From Moorena sp. SIOASIH (GTDB taxonomy: Bacteria > Cyanobacteriota > Cyanobacteriia > Cyanobacteriales > Coleofasciculaceae): a stretch of DNA of 64,000 bases. Position 1 is the first letter of the stretch. Each line of letters starts with the position of its first letter. The translations under genes were made by a program, and so were the position numbers. The notes beneath the pieces were generated by a model. That model was not told the origin of the DNA. It saw only the letters and a list, made by a program, of their open reading frames with translations, and ran no database searches. Shown here one piece after another: positions 459 through 59,232 of the stretch. Location of the stretch: positions 677,053 through 741,052 of the forward strand of contig NZ_JAAHIH010000001.1 of assembly GCF_010671925.1 (NCBI RefSeq). The letters run 5' to 3'.

Positions 459-2093
459 CTATAGATTGACACCACCTTTTTGCAGCTGTCGGATCGGATC
501 TAACAAGAAATCCACAATCCGACGGCGGCGGATAATGATGTCAGCTTTGGCTGTCTGACCAGCTTTGAATCGGATCATTTGATCGTCTTCTGTGACGTAG
601 TCACGGTTTAGGGAAACTTCTACCTCATAAACCGAACCAAGTTGTTGATCAGTTTTGGCATCGGCAGAAAGGGAGGTGACTTTCCCTTTGATGATGCCGT
701 ATTCCTGATAGGGATAGGCATCAAGCTTGATTTGCACCGGCATTCCTTCTTTGATAAAGCCTGCCTCCTGATTAGGTAAACTAGCTGATAACACCAGGGG
801 CACATCTTGGGGCGCTACTTCGGCAATGGTTTGACCGGGTTGAAAGACTTCACCAATATTGGCAACGTTGAGGGAGGAAACTACTCCATCCACCGGTGCA
901 TAGAGAAACTTTTGTTTGAGCCTGGCTTTCGCACTAGTCAGCAGATTGCGGTTTTCAGCAATTTTGGCATTTAGTTGAGTCAGTTCGATCTCCAACTGCT
1001 GAAGTTTCTGCTTGGTCTCGAGCTGAGTCCGATGGACTTCTGCTTGCTTCTGAGTTAGACCTGCCTGAAGTCGTTGGATTTCTGCTAAGGTCTGGTTGAG
1101 ATCGCTCTGAGTGAGAGTGATCGCGCTGTTGCGATCGCGTATACTCTGCTGGGCTTGATAAATTTGGTCTTGGTTACTGGCTGCTTCTTGCAGTTGGGTT
1201 TGGGTAATCACCCGCTGACTCGCTCGTAGGCTATGTTCTGCTTGAAATACTTGTTCTTTTGAGATTGCCCCTGATGCTAACAGGGGTTTGAGATTCTCTA
1301 GGCGTTCTTTCAGGGCAAATGCATCATCCTCTCGTTGCTGGAGCAGTGCTTGGGTAGTCGCCTTGAGCCGTTTTAGCCGTTCTAGTCTGTCCTGACTGGC
1401 GACTTTTGCCTCCTGATGTTGGATCAGTTGTTCTCGTAAGGCGGCTACTTTAGTCTGTGCCTGAGCGATAGCGGCCTGTTGTGCGTCAATGTCCGCTTTG
1501 GCAATTTGCTTACGGGTTTGGGCTTCTTGGCGGATGTTTTCAATCAGCCCTTGCATCTGAATTAATTTGATTTGGTCAGCATTGATCAGTTGCTCCAAAC
1601 GCTCTACTTCCGTAGCGCCAAGTTCTGTATCCAGTTCCACCAAGACTTGCCCAGCGGTAACCGATTCCCCTTCTTTGACCGCAATCTTGGCCACCTTGCC
1701 GGATTGGATCGGGTGAATTTTATAAACTTCTCCTTTTGGCACTAACTTGCCTGTGGCTTTACCCACTTCGTCAATTTGCCCAAAGGTTGCCCAAACCCCA
1801 CAGACCATACAGAAGGCAAATCCGCCCAAAAGCAGTCTCTGGGGCAGTACCGATGGGGGCTGATCTAGTAGATTTTGTAGGGCTGTTGACCAGTTTTCAG
1901 TGTTGGTAGCTCCTAGTGATGATGTTGGTGTGACCGGATTTCGAACATGATTAGGTGATTGGGGGAGTGGTGGTGCTGATACCGCTGTCCCCCCATAGAT
2001 CGATCTAATCTCAGCTGAAGTTAGATTAGGGTGAGGGGTTTGTCCCTTAGGGAGTCCCCCTCTAGACGGGATAGATGCTTGTGGTTTCTTCAT
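459..2093 (-). CDS. HlyD-family periplasmic adaptor (membrane fusion protein) of a type I / peptide-export ABC system, paralog 1
   Basis: 544 aa. Single N-terminal TM segment (LLLGGFAFCMVCGVWATFG), a long coiled-coil, and a C-terminal beta-barrel ending IIIRRRRIVDFLLDP. Lies 170 bp downstream of the C39-ABC gene on the same strand. About 60% identical to the ORF at 18288-19892. Confidence 0.85.
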   Translation of the reverse strand: MKKPQASIPSRGGLPKGQTPHPNLTSAEIRSIYGGTAVSAPPLPQSPNHVRNPVTPTSSLGATNTENWSTALQNLLDQPPSVLPQRLLLGGFAFCMVCGVWATFGQIDEVGKATGKLVPKGEVYKIHPIQSGKVAKIAVKEGESVTAGQVLVELDTELGATEVERLEQLINADQIKLIQMQGLIENIRQEAQTRKQIAKADIDAQQAAIAQAQTKVAALREQLIQHQEAKVASQDRLERLKRLKATTQALLQQREDDAFALKERLENLKPLLASGAISKEQVFQAEHSLRASQRVITQTQLQEAASNQDQIYQAQQSIRDRNSAITLTQSDLNQTLAEIQRLQAGLTQKQAEVHRTQLETKQKLQQLEIELTQLNAKIAENRNLLTSAKARLKQKFLYAPVDGVVSSLNVANIGEVFQPGQTIAEVAPQDVPLVLSASLPNQEAGFIKEGMPVQIKLDAYPYQEYGIIKGKVTSLSADAKTDQQLGSVYEVEVSLNRDYVTEDDQMIRFKAGQTAKADIIIRRRRIVDFLLDPIRQLQKGGVNL

Positions 2094-2263
2094 GGTAGCT
2101 CACCCATAATCACTGGTAGTTTTGTGTGTATTGATTTGAACTGAGAACACGAAGGTTGGCGAAAGTCAATCTTGAACACAGTGGGCGATATACTGATCAC
2201 CCCTGATCACCCCAAGAGCGATTTTTTACGCAAAACATTTACAAACTTTCATAAATGCCAGAG

Positions 2264-5200
2264 TTAAAGATCTAGCTGTTGCTGGGCTAGGTGGTAGTAC
2301 AGACCTTTCTCAGCCATGAGTTCGGAGTGGGTACCGCGCTCTGCGATCAGACCTTGGTCGAGGACCAGTATAGAGTCAGCATTGCGCACCGTAGAAAGAC
2401 GGTGGGCAATTATGAAGGTAGTGCGATCGCGACTAATGCGAGCTAAATTTTGTTGAAAACGTCGCTCTGATTCTGTATCTAGGGAGCTAGTCGCTTCATC
2501 GAGAATCAGAATCTTGGGGTTACCCAGCAAGGCTCGGGCGATCGCAATCCGTTGCCGTTGTCCCCCAGACAGGTTAGACCCTCGCTCCCCAACCTTGGTG
2601 TTGTATCCCAGGGGCAGGTTTTGAATAAACACATGAGCTTCAGCCAATTTGGCAACTTCTACCCCTTGTTCGAGACTATACTCAGGTTTGTATAAGGTGA
2701 TGTTCTCTAAAATCGTCCCTGAAAACAAAAAGCATTCTTGAGGTACCACACCTAATTGAGAGCGCAAAGACTGGGGAGAAACATGTCGGATGTCGTGGCT
2801 ATCAATCAAAATACGGCCTGTAGTTGGCTGATAGAGTCCTTGGAGCAGCTTTACCAAGGTACTTTTGCCCGAGCCACTGCGTCCGACAATGGCTATGGTC
2901 TTTCCAGGGGCAACCTCGAAGGAAATGTTTTGAAGGGTGTATTGTTCATCATCCTCACTATAGCGAAAGCTGACATTGTCAAACTGGACATGCCCCGCGA
3001 TCGCAGGCAATGGCATCAAGGGTTTTTGGGTATTCTCTTCTGGCTGGGTGGTCAAGACATCATCGAGCCGTTCCACCGATACCAATATTTCTTGGAACTC
3101 ATCCCAAAGTCCCACCAAAGACAAAATCGGGCTAATCACCCGACCAATGAGCATATTAAATGCCACAAACTGACCAATCGTGAGCTGTTCCTGAATTACC
3201 AGACTTGCTCCCAACCACAGTAAAGCCGTGCCGCTGAGGTTATTAATCAAGCCACTCACTGACCCTAAGCCGTTGGCCAAGTTCTGTCCTTTGAATTCCA
3301 TATTCAACTGACCCGTGAGGCGGTCTTCCCAGCGCCAGCGCACCTCTTGTTCAGAGGCTGCTGCTTTGACAGTTGCTACTCCCGACATCATTTCTACTAA
3401 CAGGGAGTTTTGTGCTGCTGCTTCTTTAAAGATTTCCCTGGACACTTGGCGTAGAAATGGACTGGCAAGTATGGTCAAAATCGCAATCGGTACAATCGTT
3501 GCCAGCACCAGCAAGGTTAGGTACCAGTTGTAGTAGAGCATCAGCCCCACATAGACAAACATCATTACCACATCCAGCCAAGTGGCAATAGCTTGCTGAG
3601 TGAGGAACGCCTGAATTTTCCCAGTTTCCTGGACTCGGGTTAGGATGTCCCCCACCTGGCGGGATTCAAAAAACTTCAGGGGTAGTGTGAGGGTATGCTT
3701 AATAAAGCCACTGACAAAGGTAAGACTGAGTCGATTGGAAAAGTAATCCAGCAGGTAGCGTCTGGTGACACTCAAGCCTATGCTCCAAAGGCCAAAGATG
3801 ACTAGACCAATTGCAAACACATTGAGGGTAACAACACTTTTGTTAACCACCACCTGATCCAAAATGATTTGGGTAAACAGGGGGGTAATCAGACCAAACA
3901 CCTGGAGCAGTAGGGAAGCTAGGATAATTTGCAACAGGACTGTGCGATGGGGCCATAGCAATCCCCAAAAGCGATTCAGAGAAATCTTTTGATTGGGAGT
4001 CCCTGCTAGCTGGGGAGTGGGATTCAACAGCAGCGCATATCCTGTCCAACCCTCTAGAAATTGTTGTCGAGAAAGCGATCGCTTTCCCACAGCTGGATCT
4101 GCAACAAGTACCTTCTCCCCTTTGACCCAATAGACAACTATATAATGATCACCTTGCCAGTGAGCAATCCAGGGGTTACTCCGATCCGCTAGGCGAGCTA
4201 AAGACGCTCTAACTGGAGTAGCTTGAAATCCTAAGGTTTCTGATGCTCTGGCTAACCCTTTCAGGGATGACCCAGAACGCCCCACTCCAGCCAGATTCCG
4301 TAGGGAATTCAAGCTAAATCGTTTGCCCCAGTAGCGTCCAATCATTGCCAAGCAAGCAGCGCCACAATCTGAAGAGGATTGCTGTTCAATGAAGGGATAG
4401 CGTTGCCACAACCCCTGAAGAAAAGGCCGCTTCGTCGGTACGGGAAATGGGATCAGTTTAGACTCAGCCTGGGTCGAGTTACTTTGTGTTTCACCATTTC
4501 CATCAGGGAGCTTAGATGGAATTAGCGGTACTCTGTGACCCGACTGAGTACGGACTTGGTGAACTATGGCGCTAGTGGCTTCTGATTTCTGGTGTCCATT
4601 TTCAGAGCTTTGACCCTTCTGTGGACTCAACTTTGCCAGCACCGGTGCCAGGAGTTGGGCAGTGTCCCAATGTTCCTGAGGTAGATGGGTTACCCATAAA
4701 TCGCTTTGGGCAATCCAATCTTCCGGTACTGGCTGAGGATAGCCCCAACTTTCGCCAATGGCAATGGTTAGTGGGCAATTCTCTTCAACTCCACCCCTTT
4801 CAATCTGACCACTACGTAGCCAGTAACGACCGACTTGGCCAGACTCAACTAAGGACTCCCCAGCGGAAATCCGTGTGTCTAGCAGGTAGGGCAACAATTG
4901 CTGTAGGGTGATGCTGTCAAGGGTACGCAATTCTGTCAAGGTCTTGAAGAAAATCAAGCGTTGCCGGTGCTGAGCTTGTTGCTGTAGGTGTTCGAGCCAC
5001 TCCGGTAGCCGTTCTAACCAAGATTGGAGTTCAGCTAAGGACATCCGAGCCATCTGTCCTGAACTCGCTGCGATCGCTTGGTAAGGATAAGATAGGTTGC
5101 ACAACAGTGCCTCAGCCCCAAAGGTTGCCCCCTCTTCAAGAACCTGTACGGATACGTCCCGCTGCTTTTCCCCATCAAAGCTTAGCAGCCGCACCCGCCC

Positions 5201-5473
5201 GCCACAGACGACGTAAAAATACTTATTTGGTTCATTTTGAACAGAATTTTGGCTTAACTCCCGTCTAGGATAGGGTATAATTTCATCACCTAGCTCAAAG
5301 TTATGAATTTGGAAGGATTGACTAAATTCTGGTAATAGTGTCTTTGATAGCGTCTTATCCAACCAGTTCGCGATTAGGTGTTCAATAACCTCGGAAGATT
5401 TCTGGGTCGGGTATTGGCCAAGGTAATCTGGTGGTTGCCCTGATTTTTCTAAACCGACCGTTTTCTGATGCAT
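2264..5473 (-). CDS. Peptidase-containing ABC transporter (N-terminal cNMP-binding-like domain + C39 cysteine peptidase + 6-TM + ABC ATPase); HetC-like bacteriocin/peptide exporter, paralog 1
   Basis: 1069 aa. C39 motif QQSSSDCGAACLAMIGRYWGKRF has the catalytic Cys. Walker A GRSGSGKST, ABC signature LSGGQRQRIAIARAL, Walker B ILILDEATSSLD. The N-terminal region shows a Crp-like beta-roll pattern (FELGDEI...VVCGGRVRLL...EEGATFGAEALL). Confidence 0.9.
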   Translation of the reverse strand: MHQKTVGLEKSGQPPDYLGQYPTQKSSEVIEHLIANWLDKTLSKTLLPEFSQSFQIHNFELGDEIIPYPRRELSQNSVQNEPNKYFYVVCGGRVRLLSFDGEKQRDVSVQVLEEGATFGAEALLCNLSYPYQAIAASSGQMARMSLAELQSWLERLPEWLEHLQQQAQHRQRLIFFKTLTELRTLDSITLQQLLPYLLDTRISAGESLVESGQVGRYWLRSGQIERGGVEENCPLTIAIGESWGYPQPVPEDWIAQSDLWVTHLPQEHWDTAQLLAPVLAKLSPQKGQSSENGHQKSEATSAIVHQVRTQSGHRVPLIPSKLPDGNGETQSNSTQAESKLIPFPVPTKRPFLQGLWQRYPFIEQQSSSDCGAACLAMIGRYWGKRFSLNSLRNLAGVGRSGSSLKGLARASETLGFQATPVRASLARLADRSNPWIAHWQGDHYIVVYWVKGEKVLVADPAVGKRSLSRQQFLEGWTGYALLLNPTPQLAGTPNQKISLNRFWGLLWPHRTVLLQIILASLLLQVFGLITPLFTQIILDQVVVNKSVVTLNVFAIGLVIFGLWSIGLSVTRRYLLDYFSNRLSLTFVSGFIKHTLTLPLKFFESRQVGDILTRVQETGKIQAFLTQQAIATWLDVVMMFVYVGLMLYYNWYLTLLVLATIVPIAILTILASPFLRQVSREIFKEAAAQNSLLVEMMSGVATVKAAASEQEVRWRWEDRLTGQLNMEFKGQNLANGLGSVSGLINNLSGTALLWLGASLVIQEQLTIGQFVAFNMLIGRVISPILSLVGLWDEFQEILVSVERLDDVLTTQPEENTQKPLMPLPAIAGHVQFDNVSFRYSEDDEQYTLQNISFEVAPGKTIAIVGRSGSGKSTLVKLLQGLYQPTTGRILIDSHDIRHVSPQSLRSQLGVVPQECFLFSGTILENITLYKPEYSLEQGVEVAKLAEAHVFIQNLPLGYNTKVGERGSNLSGGQRQRIAIARALLGNPKILILDEATSSLDTESERRFQQNLARISRDRTTFIIAHRLSTVRNADSILVLDQGLIAERGTHSELMAEKGLYYHLAQQQLDL

Positions 5474-8620: not shown

Positions 8621-8637
8621 AATAAGTCCATATAAAA

Positions 8638-10287: not shown

Positions 10288-10335
10288 TAAACAGCCAAAA
10301 TGGCGTTTGAAATATATTGATTATATTTATAATTT
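10288..10335 (+). promoter_or_regulatory. Candidate promoter of RTX paralog C: CAGCCAAAATGGCG box plus TTTATAAT
   Basis: Same box-to-(-10) spacing as upstream of paralog B. Confidence 0.5.
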
Positions 10336-10371
10336 TCATCTAATATAGTTGTCCAAAAAAACGGAAAATTC

Positions 10372-13192: not shown

Positions 13193-13951
13193 TTATTCCC
13201 CAGTATTGATGCTACTAAGTTCACTATGGATCATATAGTTAACTTCACTATTGAGCCACTCTTGAAACATACTCTGTAAAATTTCTTTAGACTTTTCTTC
13301 GGTTAATTCAGCTGGAATAAATTCTTCAACTAAGAAAAGATGATATCCTTGTTCGGTTTGCAGGGGATGAGTCACTTCTCCTGGCTGAACACTAAAGATA
13401 ACGGCAGCTATCTCAGGCTTAAAACTCCAGCGAGGCAACTTTCCTTCATAGCCACACCGTCGCTGCCTTTCTGGGTCTATATCATAGAAATGAGCAGCTT
13501 CATAAAAACTGATTTCTCCTTCCTCAATCTGATAGAAAAGCTCCTGAGCAATTTCCTCAGAATCCACCATAATTTGATAAACCAACACTTGCTCAAAGTC
13601 CAGTCGATTTTGAGCAAAGCTTTTTTCGACATCCTTAGAAAATAAGGACTCAGCAAGCTTTTGGGCAAGCAAGCGATCGCTAATTCCCGCTTCCCAATCT
13701 TCTGCTGTCACCATCTGATCTGCCAGCCAGGCCAATGTTTCTGCTGCCTTTTCCAAACGATGGGCATAACGGATCTCATCCGCCTGAGCTTGCACGTCTT
13801 CTGGTGTGACTGTTATCCCTCTTTCCTGAGCCGCTTTATTGATAACTCGTTGATACAAAACTTTTTGACAGATGCCCTTCAGATGCATCTCCTTTTTCAA
13901 GGAGTACATAATTTCCTCTGGAGTCACCGATGCTTTGGAAAGGTCAACCAT
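13193..13951 (-). CDS. PpiC/parvulin-type peptidyl-prolyl cis-trans isomerase with an N-terminal SurA-like chaperone segment
   Basis: 252 aa. The parvulin core pattern is readable: VLVYQIMVDSEEIAQELFYQIEEGEISFYEAAHFYDID...GYEGKLPRWSFKPEIAAVIFSVQPGEVTHPLQTEQGYHLFLV. Confidence 0.65.
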   Translation of the reverse strand: MVDLSKASVTPEEIMYSLKKEMHLKGICQKVLYQRVINKAAQERGITVTPEDVQAQADEIRYAHRLEKAAETLAWLADQMVTAEDWEAGISDRLLAQKLAESLFSKDVEKSFAQNRLDFEQVLVYQIMVDSEEIAQELFYQIEEGEISFYEAAHFYDIDPERQRRCGYEGKLPRWSFKPEIAAVIFSVQPGEVTHPLQTEQGYHLFLVEEFIPAELTEEKSKEILQSMFQEWLNSEVNYMIHSELSSINTGE

Positions 13952-18287: not shown

Positions 18288-19892
18288 CTATAGATCGATG
18301 CCACTTTTTTGCAGCTGTCGCATCGGATCCAATAAGAAATCGATAATCCGACGGCGGCGGATGATGATGTCAGCATTGGCGGTCTGACCAGCCTTAAACC
18401 GGATGATTTCATCCTCTTCAATCACATAGTCACGGTCGAGGGACACTTTCACCTTATAGACTGAACCCATTTGTTGATCGGCTTTAGCATCGGAAGAGAT
18501 GGAAATCACCGTGCCTTTGATGATGCCGTAATCCTGATAGGGATAGGCATCAAATTTTACTTGCACTGGCATTCCTTCGTTAATGAACCCTGCCTCGCGA
18601 GTAGGCAAACTTGCGGATAGCACTAGGGGGGCACCTTGAGGAGCGATTTCGGCGATGCTACGTCCCGGTTGCACCACTTCACCAGCATTAGCAATGTTGA
18701 GGGAAGATATTATCCCATCCACTGGCGCTTTGAGAAACTTCTGTTTGAGCCTGGTTTTAGCAGTAGTAACCAGGGTTTCATTTTCAGCAATTCTAGCTTT
18801 GATTTGGGTCAGTTCTAGTTCTAACTGTTGAATTTTCTGCTGTGTTTCTAAGCGAGTGGTGCGTCCCGTCGCTTGCCGATGCTCTAATTCTGCTTCTAGT
18901 CGCTTGATTTCTGCTAAAGTCTGTTCTAGCTCACCTCGGCTTTGGCTAGTCGCCGCTTCGCGATCGCGTATACTTTGCTGAGCTTGAAAGATCTGTTCCC
19001 GAGTACTCAAACCTTCTTGCAGTTTGCTTTCAGTAACAGCACTTTGGCTAGCACGAAAGCTTTGTTCTGCTTGAAATACGTGTTCTTTGGAGATTGCTCC
19101 TTCTGCCAACAGAGGTTTAAGGTTATCGAGTCGTTCCTTGAGAGCCACTACATTAGCCCGCCGTTGCTGGAGCAGTTCTTTGGCTGTCGCCTGCACCAGT
19201 TTCAGCCGTTGTAATCGTTCGCGATTAGCAGCTTTAGCTAACTGATGTTGAATGATTTGTTGTCTAATCGCCGACGCACTAGCTTGTGCTCGTGCGATCG
19301 CAGCTTGTTGCCCTTGAACTTCTGCTTGGGTAATTTGCTCACGGGTTTCCGCTTCCAGACGGGTTCTGTCAATCAGTCCTTGCATCTGAACTAACTTAAT
19401 CCGGTCTGAATTAAGCACTTTCTCTAAACGCTCTACTTCCTGAGTGGCAAGGTCTGTATCCAGTTCCACCAAGACTTCCCCAGCTTTAACCGCTTGCCCT
19501 TCTTTGACCTTAATACTGGCAACCTTGCCTGGCTCAATCGGGTCAACTTTATAAACGTCCCCTTTTGGCACTAAGCTTCCATGAGCTTTACCCACTTCAT
19601 CAATCTGCCCAAACGTTGCCCAAGCCACAAATATTGTACAGAAGCTTAAGCCACCCAACATCAGCAGCCGAGGAAGGTTCGCCGGAGGCTGATCGAGGGT
19701 AGTTTGTATGGAGGTTGACCATTTGGACGTACTAGGAGCATTGGCAGTATTGGTTCCTACCTCTGTGCTGGGTGAGGCTACAGCCTCTTGGTCATAATCA
19801 GGTCTCAGGCGACCTGATGGCATTAAAACGACGTTACCCTGACGACTGGTAGCCGCTTCAGGTGGGGAGTTGATTGGTTTTGCTTGTGTCAT
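18288..19892 (-). CDS. HlyD-family periplasmic adaptor, paralog 2
   Basis: 534 aa. Collinear with the ORF at 459-2093 (same TM, coiled-coil and C-terminal IIIRRRRIIDFLLDP). Confidence 0.85.
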   Translation of the reverse strand: MTQAKPINSPPEAATSRQGNVVLMPSGRLRPDYDQEAVASPSTEVGTNTANAPSTSKWSTSIQTTLDQPPANLPRLLMLGGLSFCTIFVAWATFGQIDEVGKAHGSLVPKGDVYKVDPIEPGKVASIKVKEGQAVKAGEVLVELDTDLATQEVERLEKVLNSDRIKLVQMQGLIDRTRLEAETREQITQAEVQGQQAAIARAQASASAIRQQIIQHQLAKAANRERLQRLKLVQATAKELLQQRRANVVALKERLDNLKPLLAEGAISKEHVFQAEQSFRASQSAVTESKLQEGLSTREQIFQAQQSIRDREAATSQSRGELEQTLAEIKRLEAELEHRQATGRTTRLETQQKIQQLELELTQIKARIAENETLVTTAKTRLKQKFLKAPVDGIISSLNIANAGEVVQPGRSIAEIAPQGAPLVLSASLPTREAGFINEGMPVQVKFDAYPYQDYGIIKGTVISISSDAKADQQMGSVYKVKVSLDRDYVIEEDEIIRFKAGQTANADIIIRRRRIIDFLLDPMRQLQKSGIDL

Positions 19893-20689: not shown

Positions 20690-23600
20690 TTAAAGATCTA
20701 GCTGCTGCTGCGCTAGATGATAGTAAAGACCTTGACGATCCATGAGTTCCTCATGGTTGCCTTTCTCGACCAGAACACCTCGGTCTAGGACAAGGATGCA
20801 GTCAGCATTGCGCACTGTAGAGAGGCGGTGGGCGATGATGAAGGTAGTGCGATCGCGACTAATGCGAGCTAAGTTTTGTTGAAAGCGGCGCTCGGATTCT
20901 GTATCTAGAGAGCTAGTCGCTTCATCCAGAATCAGAATCTTGGGGTTGCCCAATAGGGCTCGGGCTATGGCAATCCTTTGTCGTTGTCCACCAGAAAGGG
21001 TAGAGCCTCGCTCTCCTACTTTTGTATTATATCCCAAAGTCATACCTTGAATAAAGGCATGGGCTTCTGCTAGTTTGGCTACCTCTACGGCTTGATCGAG
21101 GCTGAAATCTGGTCGGTAGAGAGTGATATTTTCGACAATTGTCCCCGAGAACAAGAAACATTCTTGGGGTACCACACCCATTTGAGAACGCAAGGATTGG
21201 GGGGAAATATGGCGGATATCGTGTCCATCTATCAAAATACGACCATTAGTCGGATGATAGAGACCTTGGAGTAGCTTCACCAAGGTACTCTTGCCCGAGC
21301 CACTGCGCCCCACTAGAGCAATGGTTTCTCCAGCCCTAATATCTAGGGAAATATTCTGTAGGATATTGCGATCCTCATCCTCCGAGTATCGGAAGGTAAC
21401 ATCTTCCAATATTACATCACCCTTAATCTCAGGTAGAACCAGCATCGGTTCTTGAGGATTCTCCTCTGGCTTAGCAGATAAGACATCATTCAGCCGTTCT
21501 ACAGACACCAAGATTTCTTGAAACTCATCCCAAAGATTCACTAGAGCCAAAATTGGACCAGTCACTCGGCCAATGAGCATATTAAACGCGACATACTGAC
21601 CGATAGTAAGCTGCTCACTAATTACTAAGCTAGCGCCAAACCAAAGTAAAGCGGTGCTGCTGAGAGTATTAATTAGAGAACTAATTGACCCCAACCCGTT
21701 CGCTAGGTTTCTACCTTTAAATTGTACATTCAACTGATTGGTGAGGCGATCTTCCCAGCGCCAGCGCACTTCTTGTTCTGAAGCCGCCGTTTTTACAGTA
21801 GCAACCCCTGACATCATTTCCACTAACATAGAATTTTGTTGAGCTGCTTCTTTAAAAATTTCCCTGGACACCTGGCGTAGAAAGGGACTGGCAATCACAG
21901 TCAAGATGGCGATGGGTAAAATCGTTGCCAGCACCAGCAAGGTTAAGCGCCAATTGTAGTAGAGCATCAGTCCAATATAGACAAACACCATCACCACATC
22001 TAGCCAAGTAGCAATAGCTTGCTGAGTTATAAAACCCTGAATTTTTCCAGTTTCCTGAATTCGGGTCAGGATATCCCCCACCTGGCGGGATTCAAAAAAC
22101 TTCAGGGGTAAGGTCAGGGTATGGTTTATGAACCCACTGATGAAGGTGAGACTAAGCCGATTAGAAAAATAGTCGAGCAAGTAGCGTCTGGTTAGACTAA
22201 CCCCAATTGTCCAAAGGCCAAAGATGATTAGACCAATGGAGAAGACATTGAGAGTGACAAGGCTTCTGTTGATAATCACCCGGTCAAGAATGATCTGGGT
22301 AAATAGGGGAGTAATCAGACCAAAAACCTGAAGGATGAGGGTAGCCAGGATAATTTGCAGCAGAACTGAGCGATGGGGCCATAGCAACCCCCAAAACGGC
22401 CCTAGAGAACGTTTGTCGCTGGGAATCACTGCTAGTTGGGGAGTTGGATCCAAGAGCATGGCATACCCAGTCCAACCTTGGAGAAAGTCTTTGCGAGGAA
22501 GCGATCGCTTCCCCACTGCTGGATCAGCAACGAGTACCTTATTACCCTTTACCTGGTAGACAACAATATAGTGATCTCCTTGCCAGTGAGCAATCCAAGG
22601 ATTACTCCGATCCGCTAAGCGACCTAAAGAAGCCCTGACTGGACTAGCTTGAAACCCTAAACTTTCCGCTGCTTTAGCTAAACCTTTGAGGGATGAACCA
22701 GAACGACCCACTCCCGCCAGTTCCCGCAGGGAGTTGAGAGCAAACCTTTTGCCCCAATACTGCCCAATCATGGCTAAGCAGGCAGCACCACAATCGGAGG
22801 AAGATTGCTGCTCAATAAAAGGATAGCGCTGCCAAAACCTTAGGAATCTCCAACCTTGCTTTGCTGGTTTGGGAAAATCAAAGCTTTCTGACTGACTCGG
22901 TTCTTTTGGCGTTTGTTGCTTAGGAGGTTCTAAAACTCGCCGAGTCGGTCGTGCTCTAGTCTGGTTTGGATGTGGTGACGGAGTATGGGTCTTGTTAACT
23001 AGGCGTTGATGGGATGGAGATTTACCGTCACCATTTTTAGCAGTTTGCCTGTTCTCCTGATCCGGTGACTCGGTGGAGTTATCCAAAACTGGTGCGATCG
23101 CGCAAGCCGCTTGCCAATGCTCTTGAGGCAGCTGGTAAAGCAATACATCAGTTTGGGCAATCCAATTTGTTGGTACTGACATCGGATATCCCCAACTTTC
23201 TCCGATGCTAGGAAATGGGGCAGAGGAATTTTCCTCTGTTCCTTCTGGCGTTCCCATTTGACCACTACGTAGCCAGCAATGCCCAGCTTGGGAACAGGAC
23301 ACCAGAGACTCCCCAGCCTCAATTCGTGTTTCTACGATGTAGGGCAACAGTTGATTTAGGGTAACACCGTTAAGCGTACGCAATTTGGTCAAAGTCTTGA
23401 AGAAAATTAGGCATTGCCGGTGCTGGGCTTGTTTCCCCAGGATTTCCGACCACTTTGGCAACCGTTCCAACCAAGGCAAGAGTTGATTTAGCGAAATACG
23501 AGCAACTTGTCCTGAACTCGCTGCGATCGCTCTGTAAGGATAGGATAGACTACCTAAGAGATCATAGGCACCAAAGGTTTCCCCTTCTTCGAGTACCTGT

Positions 23601-23917
23601 ATGGAAACCTCCCGCTGTTTTTCAGCATCAAAGCCTAGTAGTCGTATCCGCCCCTGACAAACTAGGTAAAGATATTGGTGGTCTTGTTCAATCTGAACAG
23701 AATCTTGGGATAGCTCTGGTCTAGTATAGGCAAGGATTTTATCCCCTAACTGGAATTGCTCAAGGTCAAATGATTGACTAAATTCATAGTTGAGCTTTGG
23801 ATCGACTGAGTCTAGGGTCAAGCTTTGAAGCACCACTGATAAATTGCTAGCAGGGTCTGGGTTGATAGAAGACGGTGGTTTCCCAGGCTCTGCCGAATCC
23901 CTGATTATATTCTTCAT
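20690..23917 (-). CDS. Peptidase-containing ABC transporter (cNMP-binding-like + C39 + ABC), HetC-like, paralog 2
   Basis: 1075 aa. QQSSSDCGAACLAMIGQYWGKRF, GRSGSGKST, LSGGQRQRIAIARAL, ILILDEATSSLD. Its linker region between the N-terminal domain and C39 differs from paralog 1. Confidence 0.9.
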   Translation of the reverse strand: MKNIIRDSAEPGKPPSSINPDPASNLSVVLQSLTLDSVDPKLNYEFSQSFDLEQFQLGDKILAYTRPELSQDSVQIEQDHQYLYLVCQGRIRLLGFDAEKQREVSIQVLEEGETFGAYDLLGSLSYPYRAIAASSGQVARISLNQLLPWLERLPKWSEILGKQAQHRQCLIFFKTLTKLRTLNGVTLNQLLPYIVETRIEAGESLVSCSQAGHCWLRSGQMGTPEGTEENSSAPFPSIGESWGYPMSVPTNWIAQTDVLLYQLPQEHWQAACAIAPVLDNSTESPDQENRQTAKNGDGKSPSHQRLVNKTHTPSPHPNQTRARPTRRVLEPPKQQTPKEPSQSESFDFPKPAKQGWRFLRFWQRYPFIEQQSSSDCGAACLAMIGQYWGKRFALNSLRELAGVGRSGSSLKGLAKAAESLGFQASPVRASLGRLADRSNPWIAHWQGDHYIVVYQVKGNKVLVADPAVGKRSLPRKDFLQGWTGYAMLLDPTPQLAVIPSDKRSLGPFWGLLWPHRSVLLQIILATLILQVFGLITPLFTQIILDRVIINRSLVTLNVFSIGLIIFGLWTIGVSLTRRYLLDYFSNRLSLTFISGFINHTLTLPLKFFESRQVGDILTRIQETGKIQGFITQQAIATWLDVVMVFVYIGLMLYYNWRLTLLVLATILPIAILTVIASPFLRQVSREIFKEAAQQNSMLVEMMSGVATVKTAASEQEVRWRWEDRLTNQLNVQFKGRNLANGLGSISSLINTLSSTALLWFGASLVISEQLTIGQYVAFNMLIGRVTGPILALVNLWDEFQEILVSVERLNDVLSAKPEENPQEPMLVLPEIKGDVILEDVTFRYSEDEDRNILQNISLDIRAGETIALVGRSGSGKSTLVKLLQGLYHPTNGRILIDGHDIRHISPQSLRSQMGVVPQECFLFSGTIVENITLYRPDFSLDQAVEVAKLAEAHAFIQGMTLGYNTKVGERGSTLSGGQRQRIAIARALLGNPKILILDEATSSLDTESERRFQQNLARISRDRTTFIIAHRLSTVRNADCILVLDRGVLVEKGNHEELMDRQGLYYHLAQQQLDL

Positions 23918-30665: not shown

Positions 30666-30991
30666 TGGTAACCCTGGGTTTTGTAGAGGGATGTTACGGA
30701 CAAATCCCGCAAATCCAGAAATAATATGCACATAACTTCTATAAAGGTATATAATAAATAGATGTTACAGCAAAATCATCTTTAACCCTTATATGACATA
30801 GCTTTTGGCTTTCAGAGGTTGCCAGGGAGACTGGGACTTTCGCCATATGGGCTTAGGGGCAAATAATTAGGCATTGCTGACCTAGCTTGGCAATTGTCCG
30901 ATGGGATTGTCCTATGGAATTGTCCGATCAGCTTCCCTGGCTTATCTAACTTTCTGTTTAAGGTGTTCTAACTACTTTACCAGCTCGGAGT

Positions 30992-31357
30992 TTACTCTTT
31001 TAAGTTCCCTTGACTGGGGTTTTGAGGCAAAGTAGACACCCTAGGGGTTCTACCGTATAGCCGGTCTAAAACCCGCTTAACCGAGATCCGTTTCCACTGC
31101 TGACCACGCTTGGTTGTATAGCCCTGTTGATTGAGCCAGTTAGCAATTTGTTGTAATGACTTGCCCGATTTATGGTGACGGCGAATTAACTCAATTACAT
31201 GCTGTTCTTGGGGATCATCCACCAACTCACCATTTAGGGCCCGTTGACCGAAGGCCGGTGAACCATAACCTGCATAGCCACCCATAGTTGCCTTCGCTTG
31301 TCTACCTTGGTTTAGCCTTTCGATCAGGCTATCCCATTCCAATTCCTCAGCAGCCAT
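30992..31357 (-). pseudogene. Remnant of a large serine recombinase (recombinase domain only; catalytic domain missing)
   Basis: 121 aa with the recombinase-domain signature GGYAGYG...LVDDPQEQHVIELIRRHHKSGKSLQQIANWLNQQGYTTKRGQQWKRISVKRVL. Only about 200 bp separates it from trxA, so there is no room for a catalytic domain. Confidence 0.45.
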
Positions 31358-39038: not shown

Positions 39039-39101
39039 CATACTCCCACACTGATGCACACATTGACTGCTAACGCAGTACAGTTGGGCGACCGGGGAGT
39101 G

Positions 39102-40397
39102 TCAAATTTTTCGATAAATATCTTCTGAGTTAGCGTTCAAGTAGGGACGCCGCAACTCAATCCCAAACTGAGAAAACTGTTGTTGTATAGAGTTCATCCG
39201 ACCTTCGGGAGAATCGTTACCGTTTTGCCAAACTTCTAGTAAGCCATTAGCAACCATTTGCCAACGGTTCATCCCGAAACTTTCTTCAGCCGTAAATTTA
39301 TGGACTGGTTCCTCTGAGAGAGCCAGTCCTGGTGCTAGCTGCTTGGTAAATAGAGGTACTTCCATCTCAAAATGGGATTGGTGTTGAGCATAAACACTCT
39401 CAAGGATGGGATGGACTGTGTCATAATTGCTCTTCTCAAAGCAGAGAACCCCTGAATCGTAGCGGTCGTAGTTAGCGGGGTCATCTACCACCTTAAAGGT
39501 AAAGGGAATGGTAATTTCATTAAGTTGCTCGGTGATCCCTCTCATCACAGCAACTGCACCTTCGGGACTGAGATTAAAATAGACGTTCACTATCTGGTTG
39601 TCACGATCTCCAATCTTCTGATTGACTGGACCAGCATTGACTGAACCAGCATTACCAACTGCGACATAGAATCCGTGTTCAACTAGATTAGGAGGCATTC
39701 GGATAGTGACTAAGCTACCGACAGTAGCAGATTGAGCCGCTGGTGGTAAGTAATACTGAGGTCTGATGTGCAAGGTCAGACCATTCTTGTGTACAGCCAA
39801 CTTGCCATCACTCTCCTCCCTGATTACCAACCAACCTGGTTCAAAGTAACCAGTCCCAGTATTATTTTCGTACAGCTGCTGGTAAAACTCCAGGTTCAGC
39901 CCCATCACAGTATTGTTTTCTAAATTTGGGTGAAGCGGTAACTCAGTTGAATTGGCTTCGGCTGATTCTGTGGCTTTATCCAAACCGTTGTCATAGATGT
40001 CGTACAGAAAACTGAGCAGTTGCAGGCTCAGATACTTATTCTGGATCTCCACAGGTAGTTGCTGAACCCGGTCTAGCATCTCAGCTGAAAGTTCCAGAGG
40101 TTTGTAATCTGGATGACTAATACAGAAGTTAGGTTGAATCTGAAGGTTGCTAACGATGTCTTCTAGAATATCCAGCTCTCGCGCAACAGCAGAATCAGGA
40201 GAAGAATCAGGTAGTTGATTTCGCAGAGAATTTAGTAATGGCATCATGAACCAGTTGGGACTCAAAATACTCAGACCAATTGTCGTGTCGGCCTGCAACA
40301 AATTTTTCCTTCCTTTTGTAGGACTTACGACGTTTAGTTGGTTTTGCCCCCCTAACCCCCCAAATCTGGGGGGGACAAAGTCACGAAAGTCCCCCAA
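39102..40397 (-). CDS. Hypothetical protein partnered with the downstream kinase-like gene; family not assignable from sequence alone
   Basis: 431-aa ORF. The first ~50 codons run through a STRR-like repeat, so the true start is probably MMPLL at about 40247. Lies 14 bp downstream of the kinase-like gene on the same strand. Confidence 0.45.
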   Translation of the reverse strand: MGDFRDFVPPRFGGLGGQNQLNVVSPTKGRKNLLQADTTIGLSILSPNWFMMPLLNSLRNQLPDSSPDSAVARELDILEDIVSNLQIQPNFCISHPDYKPLELSAEMLDRVQQLPVEIQNKYLSLQLLSFLYDIYDNGLDKATESAEANSTELPLHPNLENNTVMGLNLEFYQQLYENNTGTGYFEPGWLVIREESDGKLAVHKNGLTLHIRPQYYLPPAAQSATVGSLVTIRMPPNLVEHGFYVAVGNAGSVNAGPVNQKIGDRDNQIVNVYFNLSPEGAVAVMRGITEQLNEITIPFTFKVVDDPANYDRYDSGVLCFEKSNYDTVHPILESVYAQHQSHFEMEVPLFTKQLAPGLALSEEPVHKFTAEESFGMNRWQMVANGLLEVWQNGNDSPEGRMNSIQQQFSQFGIELRRPYLNANSEDIYRKI

Positions 40398-40411
40398 TTA
40401 GAGAAAGGGGA

Positions 40412-41602
40412 TTAGGCGGGAATCGGGCTAAGACCAGTTAATTGAGAGGCTGTTGTCCCAAAAACAATGGGGATTGAATCGTCCGGATTGCATAACAAAC
40501 GCTTAGCCACCTGAACCATACAGACTCCTGTGTTACCAAAGATTTCCCGGTACTCGATCCTTGTCTGAATTTTTTCAATCAAGATAAAACCAGTAAATTG
40601 TATCACTCGTTTCAAAAAATCAGGACTACGCTGAAGTATTTCTGGAAAGTAATCAAAATAAGCGTTAGTTAGAGCAACAAGGCTTGGTTGAATTACCTCA
40701 AGGGGAATTTTAGCTAAGCGTAAAGCAGTTTGAACATCAATACTTCTGTTAACCGTTAAGCTACTTAGCCAAATGGTTAGGTAGTTAGCAATAATCGTAG
40801 CTAAATCAAATGCTGGATCTGACCAAGTGAACCTCTCCCAATCAATCATTCGCAGGATATTTGTACCTTCAGGCTGGTGGTTTGAGAGGGTTTGCTCCCA
40901 CTCAAGCTGGACTAAAACGTTGCTGAGCTTAAGGTCATTGTGGGTCAAACAGCAAGGCTGCCAAGCTCTGTTAAGTTCTGCGATCGCTTGCCCTATGCTC
41001 TCATGGCGCTGATAAAGTTTAAAGAATTCAATCCCATCTGCACAAAATATCGCAAAAATTTCTGGTCCAATTCCTTCTAGCCCATGAAGCAAGTTAGGGG
41101 CTTTGTCAAGGAACTCTTTTCCATGGGAGGCAAAGAAGTTTTTATATTCGTGACGGTCTAGAGTGGTGCGATGGATTGTAGCAATACTAGCTCCGAGCTG
41201 GGCTGCGATCCCAGTGGGAAAAACCTCCTTTTGATCATAAAAATCTGTTAAGTCGCAATAGTCATTGAGATAGTTAAAAACAATAATAGAGCAACTGGGA
41301 TCAAAATGAATTGGCTCCGATATTAGGGGACGAATGGGGCTCAGTTCTGGAAATTTTTGTAAAAATTCCTGAATTCGCCATTCGTTATGCAACTCACCTA
41401 AGGTGTTTCCTTCTCGATTATGAGGCTCTTGTTTAACCAAAAGATGGCGACCATTGGAAAAACTGACTAGCAAATTAAAGTTTTTACAGGATATTGGTTT
41501 AATCTGGATTTTATCTTGATATGTTGGCTTACAAAGCCCCTGTTCAACTAGATAATCTAAAACGTTTTGAGAGCTTAATAAAAATGTCATTATAATTCTC
41601 AA
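40412..41602 (-). CDS. Kinase-like (APH/phosphotransferase-fold) protein
   Basis: 396 aa. Catalytic loop HNDLKLSNVLV and IDWE motif typical of the aminoglycoside-phosphotransferase / protein-kinase-like fold. Confidence 0.65.
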   Translation of the reverse strand: MRIIMTFLLSSQNVLDYLVEQGLCKPTYQDKIQIKPISCKNFNLLVSFSNGRHLLVKQEPHNREGNTLGELHNEWRIQEFLQKFPELSPIRPLISEPIHFDPSCSIIVFNYLNDYCDLTDFYDQKEVFPTGIAAQLGASIATIHRTTLDRHEYKNFFASHGKEFLDKAPNLLHGLEGIGPEIFAIFCADGIEFFKLYQRHESIGQAIAELNRAWQPCCLTHNDLKLSNVLVQLEWEQTLSNHQPEGTNILRMIDWERFTWSDPAFDLATIIANYLTIWLSSLTVNRSIDVQTALRLAKIPLEVIQPSLVALTNAYFDYFPEILQRSPDFLKRVIQFTGFILIEKIQTRIEYREIFGNTGVCMVQVAKRLLCNPDDSIPIVFGTTASQLTGLSPIPA

Positions 41603-41639
41603 TATTACCGGGTGCTAAACCCAGTAATAGCCTCAACTA

Positions 41640-41950
41640 TTGCTTAGACACGGCTGATGGAATCGTAAGCTATCAGCTATCAGCGATTAGCGCTACGCGC
41701 ACGCTACTTGAGGTGCTATCAGCGATTAGCGCTACGCGCACGCTACTTGAGGTGCTATCAGCTAATGCGCGTAGCGCAATCGGTGCTTTTGAATACAAGA
41801 GGTAAGCATTCTTTTAATCTGAGTTAAGTCCCAGCGTCGTTCGCACAGCGTGGCCAAAGGCCAAAGCCTGTTCTACGCGAACGAGGTTTATTTTAAGCTG
41901 AAGGCTGACCGCTGACTGCTGAATGCTTACATGGTATCAAACCCTTATCA
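41640..41950. repeat. MITE-like small-repeat cluster including a 45-bp tandem duplication
   Basis: gctatcagcgattagcgctacgcgcacgctacttgaggt occurs twice. The taatctgagttaagtcccagcgt and gctgaatgcttac modules are shared with 54050-54195. Confidence 0.75.
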
Positions 41951-42167
41951 TCAGTTATTGTCAGGCATTTTGGGAGTCAGTAATTACGCAGTTAATCTAC
42001 CTGTAGGGTGTGTTATTAACGCACCCTACTAGTTATCGAGTTTGGTGCCCAGGTTTGCGTAAGTTTTGGGAGGAAAATGTCCCCAGCATCTGACTCCTAA
42101 AATCCCTATCCCCCAGTAATGAAAAGGACTTTATCCATTTACTCAGGGGAACTGAACTCTATAGGGA

Positions 42168-42476
42168 CTAATGCACTGGTCTACAATTGTGTGGAAAGAA
42201 ACCGGGATGTGGAAAGAAAAAGCCACCTTTGCTGGGTTTGAACCGGCTGGGTTTGAACCGGCTGGATTTGGAGCGGCTGGGTTTGAACCGGCTGGTTTTA
42301 AAACCCTTGCTACTTTTACTGCCAAAGAAAAAGCCACCCTTGTTTTTTTTGCCGCCGCCTTCTATACCCTTGAGTTCATCTTCGGTTAGATCTTTCATGA
42401 ACTCATGGAATCCTTCAGACTCCGAAAACAGAGCTGAACCAGCAGGAGGCAGATCAGAAATTGAGAAGTTACTCAT
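42168..42476 (-). CDS. Canonical double-glycine-leader peptide with a cationic repetitive core (bacteriocin-like precursor)
   Basis: Preferred start is MSNFSISDL (42476), which has a GGAG Shine-Dalgarno. The track ORF starts 8 codons earlier with no Shine-Dalgarno. The leader ends MKDLTEDELKGIEGG, matching the consensus Leu(-12)...Glu-Leu(-8/-7)...Ile(-4)-x-Gly-Gly. The core GKKNKGGFFFGSKSSKGFKTSRFKPSRSKSSRFKPSRFKPSKGGFFFPHPGFFPHNCRPVH is encoded by tandem 15-nt repeats. Confidence 0.5.
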   Translation of the reverse strand: MSNFSISDLPPAGSALFSESEGFHEFMKDLTEDELKGIEGGGKKNKGGFFFGSKSSKGFKTSRFKPSRSKSSRFKPSRFKPSKGGFFFPHPGFFPHNCRPVH

Positions 42477-43000
42477 GTTACAATCTCCAATAGTAGACAA
42501 TTGGGGAAAATAAGCACTTCTATTAATTAGCTACTATGTTGCCTGCGACTAGGTTTTGTTAATAGGTAATAGTCAATGGGACATCAGGCATCGTAATCCA
42601 ACTACCAATGACCAATTACCAATGATCAATTACCAATTAAGCATCTCATTATTTTCGCTAATTCATATTACATGCCTATTTTCCGGCGAATTCAGATCAA
42701 GTCCGGTTAATCACGTCCAGAATAGTCCTTTGATTTTTGGCTTACTGTAAGTAATAGATGATGGATAATCTTAAACTACGAATTACCAATGACGAATTCC
42801 CAATTTTCAATTGCCACCATCAGGGATCTTTATGATTATTGAACCGGACTTCCGATGATCTGTGTTTTTGGGACTTTCATAATTTAGCTAGATAAGTTAT
42901 GGCGATGTCGCCACTTTGGCGCTAATTTACAAAAATTCATCAAGATTGACGCTTTGGTAATTGGTAATTGGTAATTAGTAATTAGTAATTAGCTTGGTTC

Positions 43001-43104
43001 ATGTAGGGTGGGCAGTGCAGCAGACAGATAATGAAGCTTGCAAAGCGCGTTGGTAGGCACTGCCCACCCTACGATTAATGACAATGGTGCAAGATCTTAG
43101 TTTG
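43001..43104. repeat. Third copy of the ~100-bp palindromic element found at 37388-37605, embedded in GGTAATT heptamer arrays
   Basis: About 90% identical to the copies after tRNA-Ser. Flanked by (ggtaatt/agtaatt)n at 42961-43000 and 43101-43160. Confidence 0.8.
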
Positions 43105-43457
43105 GTAATTGGTAATTAGTAATTGGTAATTAGTAATTAGTAATTGGTAATTAGTAATTGGAATTACTCCCTCGACCTTAGAGGTTGTCTGAGAAGTCTC
43201 ATTTGCTACACCAAGCCCCCGTTAGTCCCCCAAGCGAGCAATCCCTCGCTTGGGGGACTTTTACCAGCAAATTGATTCTTGTTCCCCCCAGAATTGGGGG
43301 GCTAGGGGGGCAAAATTGAATATCAAAAAACTTTTCAGATATCCTCTTACCCATTACCAAAAAAAACAACGACAACTATAGCAAAGGGAACAGCGGATCA
43401 CCGGAACAGGTAACAGAGAACAGGTAACAGAGAATAGGGAAGTCGAACTGGTGAAGT

Positions 43458-43926: not shown

Positions 43927-44075
43927 GCGGTCAGCGGTCAGCGGTCAGCGGTCAGTAGTCAGTGGTCAGTGATCAGTAGTCAGTGGTCAGTGGTCAGTGG
44001 TCAGTGGTCAGTGGTCAGTGGTCAGTGGTCAGCGGTCAGTGGTCAGTGGTCAGTGGTCAGTGGTCAGTGGTCAGC
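43927..44075. repeat. STRR-like heptamer array (GGTCAGC/GGTCAGT)n
   Basis: About 21 tandem heptamers upstream of the Tab2-like gene. Confidence 0.9.
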
Positions 44076-44207
44076 TGATTTTATTCAAAAGCTGAAAGCT
44101 GATAGCTCATAGCTAATAACTGATAGCTAATAACTAATAGCTAATAACTGATAGCTAATAACTGATAGCTGACGGATTGCGCTCTTGGAGCCGTATCATA
44201 AATATGG

Positions 44208-45092: not shown

Positions 45093-45362
45093 GACAAGGC
45101 AAAAGGCAACAGGCAACAGGCAACAGGCAACAGGCAAAAGGCAACAGGCAACAGGCAACAGGCAAAAGGCAAAAGGCAAAAGGCAAAAGGCAAAAATGAA
45201 TTGTGAGAATTTTGGTTCCCTACTCCCTACTCCCTACTCCCTACAAAAGAACCCGTAGAACAATAACCTGTTCTACGGGTCCTGAAAGTACTGGCGCAGC
45301 TGCCCAGTCAAAGCTACCAGCAGCATTACTCGTATTACACTAGGCTGCCCCAGGCTGGAGTG

Positions 45363-55851: not shown

Positions 55852-55984
55852 GAATGGAGAATTAAGAATTAAGAATGTAGAATGTAGAATGTAGGGAGAA
55901 TGCATAATAATTACAAATTATAACTTCTAAATTAGAAATTTGCAATTCCCAATTCTCAATTCTCAATTCTTAATTCTTAATTCA

Positions 55985-58951: not shown

Positions 58952-59232
58952 CTTATTGGTAGTTGTTTTTTGCTTTATCTATCATTATAGACGAAAGGCA
59001 ATCAGTTTGACCTGATGGTGCGTTACGGGACGGACTGTCTCAACACTGGCTACGCATAACATGAGGGCGAGCCCGGTGCATCTCAATGCATGCTATTTGA
59101 CGCGGTGGTGCGTTACGGGCAGCAACCTAACACTTGCTATGGCTTGCGTCTTGGCGAGCCCGTCCCTAACACACCCTACGCCTTAATTTTAAATTCTAAA
59201 TTCTAAATTCTAAATTCTTCATTCTAAATTCT

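Follow-up and report, generated by a model that had tools for sequence, protein, structure and literature searches.

What does the open reading frame (ORF) at positions 42168..42476, on the minus strand of a 64,000-nucleotide stretch of the genome of the cyanobacterium Moorena sp. SIOASIH (hereafter the window), encode, and what would become of its product? An earlier sequence-only reading took it for an isolated gene for an antimicrobial-like, presumably unmodified peptide, perhaps newly created by a short DNA repeat. The ORF is confirmed here as a genuine gene with a double-glycine leader. The isolated, unmodified peptide was not borne out: the gene heads a precursor-kinase-lyase cassette, and its leader belongs to a family tied to pairs of genes for a kinase of the aminoglycoside-phosphotransferase (APH) type and a HopA1-type lyase. 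We are fairly confident that the ORF is the precursor gene of a cyanobacterial cassette for a peptide made on ribosomes and modified after translation (a RiPP), of the group known as Family 1A or type-B LanA, and that its product would mature by the route proposed below.

The LanA-like precursor counts 102 aa plus a stop codon. Translation is predicted to start at the ATG at 42476, 8 nt behind a Shine-Dalgarno motif GGAG (42485..42488, minus strand) that is kept at the orthologous locus L001 and replaced by GGGG at L004. Splitting the sequence after Gly-Gly gives a 41-aa leader (codons 1-41, 42354-42476), MSNFSISDLPPAGSALFSESEGFHEFMKDLTEDELKGIEGG, and a 61-aa core (42171-42353), GKKNKGGFFFGSKSSKGFKTSRFKPSRSKSSRFKPSRFKPSKGGFFFPHPGFFPHNCRPVH. 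The C-terminal end of the leader, MKDLTEDELKGIEGG, places Gly-1, Gly-2, Ile-4, Leu-7, Glu-8, Leu-12 and Met-15 where the consensus of a C39 double-glycine leader calls for GG (or GA/GS) at -2/-1, an acidic residue at -8 and hydrophobic ones at -4, -7 and -12, and also at -15, in agreement with the assignment made earlier. The core contains 12 Phe, 11 Lys, 10 Ser, 5 Arg, 1 Thr and 1 Cys; its net charge of +16 agrees with the earlier description of a strongly cationic peptide. The middle of this core is generated by a 15-nt tandem array (42231..42299, minus strand), to which Tandem Repeats Finder assigned 4.6 copies with 87% matches and which a second repeat search of the window recovered. On the coding strand the unit AGCCGGTTCAAACCC encodes SRFKP and the array reads SRFKP-SRSKS-SRFKP-SRFKP. 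Read on the plus strand, the array consists of three exact GGGTTTGAACCGGCT units, one diverged unit GGATTTGGAGCGGCT and one partial unit, for which the four tandem copies first reported are a fair description. The repeat search also found a 28-nt duplication, 82% identical, that brackets the array (42213-42240 and 42324-42351, minus strand) and codes for both KGGFFF segments of the core. The tandem-repeat score of the core was higher than that of all 200 shuffles of its own residues.

Seven orthologous loci could be compared, those of SIOASIH (the window), PAL-8-15-08-1, SIO4G3, another M. producens assembly, GCA_020357715 and two metagenomes. Frame conservation across strains and repeat number between orthologs had both been proposed as checks. 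The frame is open at all seven loci, with 102 aa in the window, 103 aa at five loci and 108 aa at L004, and only in-frame indels occur. The repeat number does differ, with four units in six orthologs and five in L004, always in frame. The only length changes are the 15-nt unit added in L004 and one codon missing in the window. Because the unit measures 15 nt, the frame is automatically kept when units are gained or lost; constraint shows more clearly in the independent 3-nt indel. The leader is close to invariant across the Moorena orthologs. The ratio of nonsynonymous to synonymous polymorphism (pN/pS) of the precursor was 0.18-0.79, and 0.65-0.79 in two of three comparisons, at a divergence too low for these values to be informative. 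A leader hidden Markov model (HMM), built from 120 family members with the Moorena orthologs left out, was run against the 986 six-frame segments of the window. Its single match was the precursor ORF (E=5e-13, positions 1-38 of 38), in an alignment that runs from the ATG to the GG. The HMM and a regular-expression screen for GG leaders revealed no second peptide of this leader family in the window. A direct protein search with the precursor returned only two close homologs, of 103 and 108 aa, and Pfam and NCBIfam scans of the peptide gave nothing above cutoff, with weak matches to the leader only.

Directly downstream, on the same strand, lie two genes that the sequence-only reading had missed. 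The nearer one (40412..41590, minus strand) encodes a LanK-like Ser/Thr kinase of 392 aa of the APH family (PF01636, 1.4e-9). Its best NCBIfam match is NF038156, 'class V lanthionine synthetase subunit LxmK' (E=3.7e-19, positions 22-342 of 347), and the motifs VKQE, HNDLKLSN and IDWE can be read in its translation; a single-sequence search of the PDB with the kinase gave nothing useful. The next gene (39102..40244, minus strand) encodes a LanY-like phospho-Ser/Thr lyase of about 380 aa of the HopA1 family, matching PF17914 over its full length (2.1e-54, 1-170 of 170) and, by profile, PDB entry 9dk1_B, 'Lyase' (E=3.3e-9). Its start is uncertain, as the open frame continues through a repeat element up to a TTG at 40397. 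Both ORFs are intact, and their pN/pS values, 0.34-0.43 for the kinase and 0.33-0.48 for the lyase, indicate purifying selection. Together with about 980 nt of upstream DNA, the lyase, kinase and precursor genes form a 4.4-kb cassette (39039..43457) that sits exactly between the convergent stop codons of a 2Fe-2S ferredoxin-like gene and a SnoaL-like gene. In M. producens 3L and three other Moorena assemblies these flanking genes are convergent and 2 bp apart, and the cassette is absent. It was found in SIOASIH, PAL-8-15-08-1, SIO4G3, a further M. producens assembly and metagenomes, and the gene order precursor-APH-HopA1 is the same in all Moorena orthologs. Since the aligned junctions show the block to be present or absent as a whole, the three genes travel as one unit. 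No LanC, LanX or LanD was found in the cassette or among window ORFs of at least 120 aa (Pfam; tblastn for a second exporter pair described below). An Rfam scan over the cassette gave no match at E<=1.

The family to which the precursor belongs has been met before by genome mining. Eyles et al. 2021 (PMC8153245) searched the surroundings of HopA1 proteins for short peptides. Their 'Family 1A' comprises 570 peptides from 183 clusters, found in Cyanobacteria only, with a conserved double-glycine leader and variable cores. Liang et al. 2022 (PMC9486802) named the cyanobacterial group 'type-B' putative LanA and required fewer than 110 aa and a C-terminal region that contains Cys and Ser/Thr, a description that the 102-aa precursor, with the Ser, Thr and Cys of its core, fits. 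A near-identical ortholog, from PAL-8-15-08-1 (bait WP_070396421), is listed in dataset file 2, network 1, of the electronic supplementary information of Eyles et al., and RiPPER had chosen the same reading frame in that strain. Fischerella (L007) and two uncultured cyanobacteria (L005, L013) encode peptides with the same leader next to an APH-HopA1 pair, and a profile of 11 such leaders retrieved 319 proteins, of which every named one is cyanobacterial. The leader of the window precursor is 37-53% identical to leaders of other genera and carries a 3-residue insertion relative to the family leader. The cassette thus shares with Family 1A the co-linear APH and HopA1 genes, the conserved GG-ending leader, the hypervariable core and the cyanobacterial host. 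It differs in having one precursor, where several non-identical ones are described as typical of the family, no adjacent exporter, the leader insertion and a long, basic core with a pentapeptide repeat. Overall, the precursor belongs to a known, genome-mined, chemically uncharacterised RiPP family and has an atypical, repeat-expanded polycationic core. Some family members carry the precomputed Pfam tag PF27893.1, so that a curated model for the leader or the peptide family may already exist; literature searches on leader motifs, PF27893 and HopA1 with Nostoc found nothing.

How far the core departs from the family was seen from 119 family cores. Their median length is 24 aa (maximum 35) against 61 aa in the window, and their median net charge +1 (maximum +6) against +16. 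All 119 contain Ser or Thr, as does the window core, and 80 of them are free of Cys, of which the window core has one. Repetitive cores, such as (TV)n(TW)n and (IT)n, occur in other members too, and among the sampled family cores the pentapeptide repeat is confined to Moorena. The suggestion that a short DNA repeat created a new peptide therefore stands in part: the repeat generates the middle of the core, but what it did was to lengthen the core of an existing family and not to make a new peptide. The length of the core would result from in-frame expansion of the 15-nt SRFKP unit together with the flanking 28-nt duplication, making it a concrete case in which tandem duplication, in frame, extended a RiPP core and left the leader unchanged. 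Beside the same kinase-lyase pair, the Microcoleus locus L006 encodes GG-leader peptides with different, longer leaders (3495-4275, plus strand, and 1929-3038, minus strand); one of their cores, KILPFGRIIPFGRIFPIGRLMKP, is also a pentapeptide repeat, here devoid of Ser, Thr and Cys.

The route proposed for the peptide follows from related enzymes. In thioamitides and class V lanthipeptides, Ser/Thr dehydration is split between a kinase and a HopA1-type lyase (PMC8153245, PMC9486802). In the cacaoidin system, CaoK phosphorylates the precursor and CaoY eliminates the phosphate, with 8 dehydrations obtained in vitro (PMC9486802). Because the leader family stands beside APH-HopA1 pairs, the expected product is a modified one, carrying Ser/Thr dehydrations, and not the bare cationic sequence. 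By homology to CaoK and CaoY, the 41-aa leader would recruit the kinase and the lyase encoded downstream. The kinase would phosphorylate some of the 10 Ser and the single Thr of the core, and the lyase would eliminate phosphate to leave dehydroalanine or dehydrobutyrine. As no LanC, LanX or LanD was found and the core has a single Cys, the product would probably be a mostly linear dehydropeptide, polycationic (+16) and rich in Phe, in which no more than one thioether could form spontaneously. An exporter that combines a cyclic-nucleotide (cNMP)-binding domain, a C39 peptidase and an ATP-binding cassette (ABC) transporter, encoded with its HlyD-family adaptor 18 kb (or 37 kb) away, would then cleave after Gly-Gly41 and export the peptide.

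Comparison with characterised systems helps to delimit this proposal. Class V lanthipeptide systems (cacaoidin CaoA/CaoK/CaoY; lexapeptide LxmA/K/Y/X/D; pristinin) likewise combine a stand-alone APH kinase and a HopA1 lyase with a leader-bearing precursor. They are actinobacterial, their leaders are unrelated and lack a GG site, and they form rings by LanC (class Vb) or by LanX plus LanD (class Va) (PMC12291118). Rings and aminovinyl-methylcysteine (AviMeCys) are made there by enzymes of these types, none of which was found among the window ORFs searched; moreover, the window kinase scores far under the LxmK cutoff, and two catalytic-site residues of CaoY are substituted in the window lyase. 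The system therefore appears to resemble the dehydration half of class V lanthipeptide biosynthesis and should not be filed as a lanthipeptide. The thioamitide pair TvaC/TvaD (TsaC/TsaD) is likewise a kinase and a HopA1 lyase, which dehydrate Ser/Thr of a RiPP precursor; the window system differs by the absence of the YcaO/TfuA thioamidation machinery and of a cysteine decarboxylase from the cassette, and in leader and core. Prochlorosins and other cyanobacterial GG-leader RiPPs, exported by C39 transporters of the LanT type, resemble the proposed system in a conserved leader, hypervariable cores, Gly-Gly cleavage by a C39-ABC exporter and precursors that may be encoded apart from the other genes. 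Prochlorosins, however, depend on a single LanM synthetase and an NHLP-type leader, whereas the window system has a split kinase and lyase and another leader family.

Several results weigh against the assignment to an active Family 1A cassette. The core is an extreme outlier of the family in length and charge, and could be a poor substrate or a decaying one. The kinase scores 69 bits, far under the 315-bit LxmK equivalog cutoff. The assignment of an exporter to the precursor is circumstantial, and none of the promoter, terminator and transcript evidence for the precursor is decisive. Literature searches found no paper characterising any product of this cyanobacterial family. The gap between precursor and kinase measures 577 nt in SIOASIH against about 300 nt elsewhere, owing to a repeat-rich insertion of about 270 nt (~41667-41936), absent from PAL-8-15-08-1 and L004, which could affect co-transcription of the two genes. 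Finally, the lyase departs from CaoY at two catalytic positions. These were mapped by profile alignment to PDB entry 9dk1_B, whose numbering is offset by +2 from CaoY. CaoY K219 and R229 correspond to Lys245 and Arg255 of the window lyase, but R187 corresponds to Asn214 and Y236 to Cys262, and in CaoY the substitution R187A nearly abolished elimination (PMC9486802). Among 150 representative lyase homologs, the Lys was kept in 103 and the second Arg in 117, while the position of Arg187 was Arg in 42 and that of Tyr236 was Tyr in 47. Since both positions vary so widely, the two substitutions were given less weight as evidence of inactivation. The predicted lyase may be either competent or impaired.

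These points had to be set against three other accounts of the locus. If the kinase and lyase genes were nearby by coincidence, the ORF could encode an unmodified class II-like double-glycine bacteriocin, cationic and membrane-active, that leaves the cell through a distant C39 transporter. The canonical GG leader, which shares with class II bacteriocins the consensus at -1, -2, -4, -7, -8 and -12, would suit this idea, as would the core, whose charge of +16 and 12 Phe are typical of cationic antimicrobial peptides, and the two CaoY-type residues missing from the lyase. Weak matches to Bacteriocin_IIc (PF10439, E=0.04) and to the lactococcin G-beta family (NF038034, E=0.0055) point the same way, but both lie under their curated cutoffs (14.3 against 27.1 bits and 16.9 against 37) and align the leader alone, the core being unrelated to those of class II bacteriocins. 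What makes this account unlikely is the company of the gene. It is accompanied by modification enzymes with which it is gained or lost as one block, its leader family stands beside APH-HopA1 pairs across genera, and selection appears to preserve both the kinase and the lyase.

Alternatively, the gene could be a decaying or non-functional member of the family, in which the repeat expansion and the loss of lyase residues reflect relaxed selection. A core far beyond the family range in length and charge, the higher pN/pS values of the precursor, the Asn and Cys at the equivalents of R187 and Y236, the insertion between precursor and kinase in the window strain and the several Moorena genomes without the cassette would all be compatible with decay. 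Yet the ORF is intact at 7/7 loci, with indels in multiples of three, the leader is almost invariant, and neither the kinase nor the lyase ORF is broken, both having pN/pS below 0.5; the Asn and Cys, moreover, occur at positions that are variable across the whole clade. We regard decay as rather improbable. Could the ORF be no gene at all, and arise from a low-complexity repeat that hides an antisense ORF or non-coding DNA? In the annotation of four Moorena assemblies the precursor is missing, and the gene callers placed an ORF of 73-89 aa antisense to it (42171-42389 on the plus strand of the window, with counterparts at L018-L021 around 1928-2198, minus strand). Overlapping ORFs are present in other frames, and the exact 102-aa sequence has no entry in a collection of 15 billion proteins. 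But the leader lies outside the repeat and matches the family profile from end to end, a Shine-Dalgarno sequence precedes the ATG, RiPPER picked the precursor frame in PAL-8-15-08-1, and the antisense ORFs have neither homologs nor a family signal, which makes a spurious ORF highly improbable. We therefore retain the assignment to a Family 1A precursor. One practical outcome is that the annotation of several Moorena genomes holds the antisense frame and misses the precursor.

Where might transcription of the precursor begin? We propose that a box about 430 nt upstream marks its promoter. The candidate promoter (42881..42920, minus strand) consists of the box GCCAAAGTGGCG (42909-42920) and a -10-like TAAATT (42881-42886), 24 nt apart. 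Measured as GCCACTTTGGC at 42910-42920, the box lies 434 nt upstream of the precursor ATG, close to the 430 bp given in the sequence-only reading. The predicted transcript would start at about 42874, with a 5' untranslated region of about 400 nt. From base composition, 0.5 copies of the palindrome GCCAnnnTGGC would be expected in the window; there are 9, an excess of about 18-fold. When one mismatch was allowed the count was 10, where shuffles gave 1.2. In eight of the nine boxes, one orientation only reads GCCAAnnTGGC with TAnnnT 24-25 nt later, and seven of these eight are intergenic. Boxes were found at 8572, 10294, 12332, 16155, 16793, 16970, 20520 and 42910, and at 2643 inside a gene; the exception is box 20520, with its hexamer 20 nt away. 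The GCCAAAnTGGCG box precedes two RTX genes (8638, 10372), two small-protein genes (15789-16061 and 16367-16696) whose products have MxISDLNHLE...GG/GA leaders, and the precursor. The precursor box is kept in L001 and L004, within a 47-nt stretch of 100% identity, and is missing from the cassette-free 3L locus. With its centre near -40 it resembles the site of an activating regulator, and the shared GCCAAAnTGGCG box suggests co-regulation of the precursor with secretion genes. A scan for promoter and terminator consensus sequences gave counts no better than shuffles and no minus-strand terminator past the precursor. The RNA downstream of the precursor stop folds better than shuffles (z=-3.2) and, for want of a U-tract, was not called an attenuator.

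The C39 transporter nearest to the precursor had been placed 18 kb away, and the distance measured was 18.25 kb. This cNMP-binding/C39 peptidase/ABC exporter of 1075 aa (20690..23917, minus strand; Peptidase_C39, ABC_membrane and ABC_tran) passes TIGR01193, 'peptide cleavage/export ABC transporter', and is paired with a HlyD-family adaptor (18288..19892, minus strand; Pfam HlyD_3) that passes TIGR01843. A second pair, also overlooked earlier, was detected by tblastn at 459..5473 on the minus strand, 37 kb from the precursor. Its HlyD (459-2093) and C39-ABC (2264-5473) proteins are 63% and 72% identical to those of the first pair. Both C39-ABC proteins hold the catalytic Cys motif QSSSDCGAACL. 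C39-ABC export of the precursor in trans, as had been suggested, is plausible, with the nearer protein as the candidate leader-cleaving exporter. The two pairs flank three RTX-repeat proteins, one with a C-type lectin domain, and a PPIC-type peptidyl-prolyl isomerase (13193..13951, minus strand; Pfam Rotamase), all within 459-23917.

Clusters of other cyanobacteria bring similar genes closer together. At L005, L006 and L013 the kinase-lyase pair is followed by an aldo/keto-reductase (AKR)-like gene and a PPIC rotamase, with genes for HlyD and/or a C39-ABC protein built like those of the window within 6 kb. Homologous C39-ABC exporters lie at most 6 kb from the pair in L013 and L006, HlyD homologs adjoin the clusters of L005 and L006, and in L005 RTX proteins are also encoded alongside. 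Rotamase homologs are linked to the kinase-lyase pair in L005, L006, L007 and L013, and the window rotamase is 31-36% identical to cluster-linked rotamases (E 1e-33 to 1e-47, tblastn). In the window, these accessory genes stand apart from the cassette, with the rotamase at 13193-13951 and the RTX genes at 6913-12198.

A bolder picture of the cassette product can be offered tentatively, though we think it more probably wrong than right. The product would be unlike any known RiPP: a linear, Phe-rich peptide of 61 residues and charge +16 with dehydroalanines at regular spacing, one per SRFKP unit, or, should Asn214 and Cys262 disable the lyase, a peptide phosphorylated at several sites. Through the GCCAAAnTGGCG box, it would be expressed together with RTX proteins and small GG-leader proteins, as part of a regulon whose products leave the cell by cyclic-nucleotide-gated C39 exporters. 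If true, this would be the first entry to the chemistry and regulation of the 570-peptide Family 1A and a live example of core evolution by in-frame microsatellite expansion. The shared box would be a possible way for a precursor distant from its exporter to be co-regulated with it. The family is large (570 peptides from 183 clusters by 2021, and 319 leader-profile matches here) and its product chemistry is uncharacterised; compact and gained or lost whole, the three-gene block is a tractable candidate for heterologous reconstitution.

Other features of the secretion region and of related loci were also recorded. Between 14343 and 16696 (minus strand), small ORFs of 90-109 aa have short leaders of the form MxISDLNHLE...VVGG, ...VQGA or ...PILGG, and bodies rich in Ser/Thr. 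Neither Pfam nor NCBIfam matched them, and they are probably secreted substrates of the adjacent C39 exporters. The N-terminal 'ATGG/ATGS/ATGN' motif of the RTX proteins was considered as a GG leader and rejected, as its hydrophobic positions are wrong. The AKR-like gene encodes a conserved protein of 338 aa and is translationally coupled behind the lyase gene (L005 7065-8081, L006 7110-8123, L013 7137-8150). It is 71-87% identical between these loci, has a weak aldo/keto-reductase match (E=1.9e-5) and is absent from the Moorena cassette. The gene is a candidate for an extra tailoring enzyme, possibly a dehydroamino-acid reductase. A lead based on the dehydroalanine reductase NpnJ, whose cluster reportedly uses a LanM, was dropped, the AKR-like gene of L005, L006 and L013 having no homolog in the window. 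In Nostocaceae and Dolichospermum (L009, L011, L012), a sub-branch of APH-HopA1 pairs has the catalytic Lys changed to Gln or His, a 4HBT thioesterase downstream and no recognisable GG-leader peptide upstream, and may differ in function. Homologs of about 770-830 aa (P0181, P0194, P0229, P0230 and others) with a C-terminal HopA1 domain are probably kinase-lyase fusions; other homologs of about 770 aa carry the HopA1 domain at the N-terminus.

Repeats are a general feature of the DNA around the cassette. Within the SIOASIH-specific insertion lie heptamer repeats, a CGTTCGC...GCGAACG palindrome and a 39-nt sequence duplicated perfectly in tandem (41676-41753). A 37-nt element with G/C runs, TTTTGCCCCCCTAACCCCCCAAATCTGGGGGGGACAA, occurs twice in inverted orientation with 92% complementarity, between the kinase and lyase genes (40342-40378) and in the upstream part of the cassette (43279-43315); the N-terminal extension that it adds to the lyase ORF is spurious. 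Intergenic DNA around the cassette is densely filled with tandem heptamers (CCAATTA/TTGGTAA, GGTCAGT x21, AAGGCAA x14), in arrays at 42598-42639, 42954-43165, 43929-44170 and 45096-45195, and the array upstream of the promoter box differs in length between strains. Elsewhere in the window, an IS605-type OrfB/TnpB gene and a truncated recombinase were found at 29303-31357. The region 54997-62667 holds a PD-(D/E)XK transposase-family gene and two paralogous NACHT-HEAT nucleoside triphosphatases of the STAND type, whose HEAT blocks are internally repeated.

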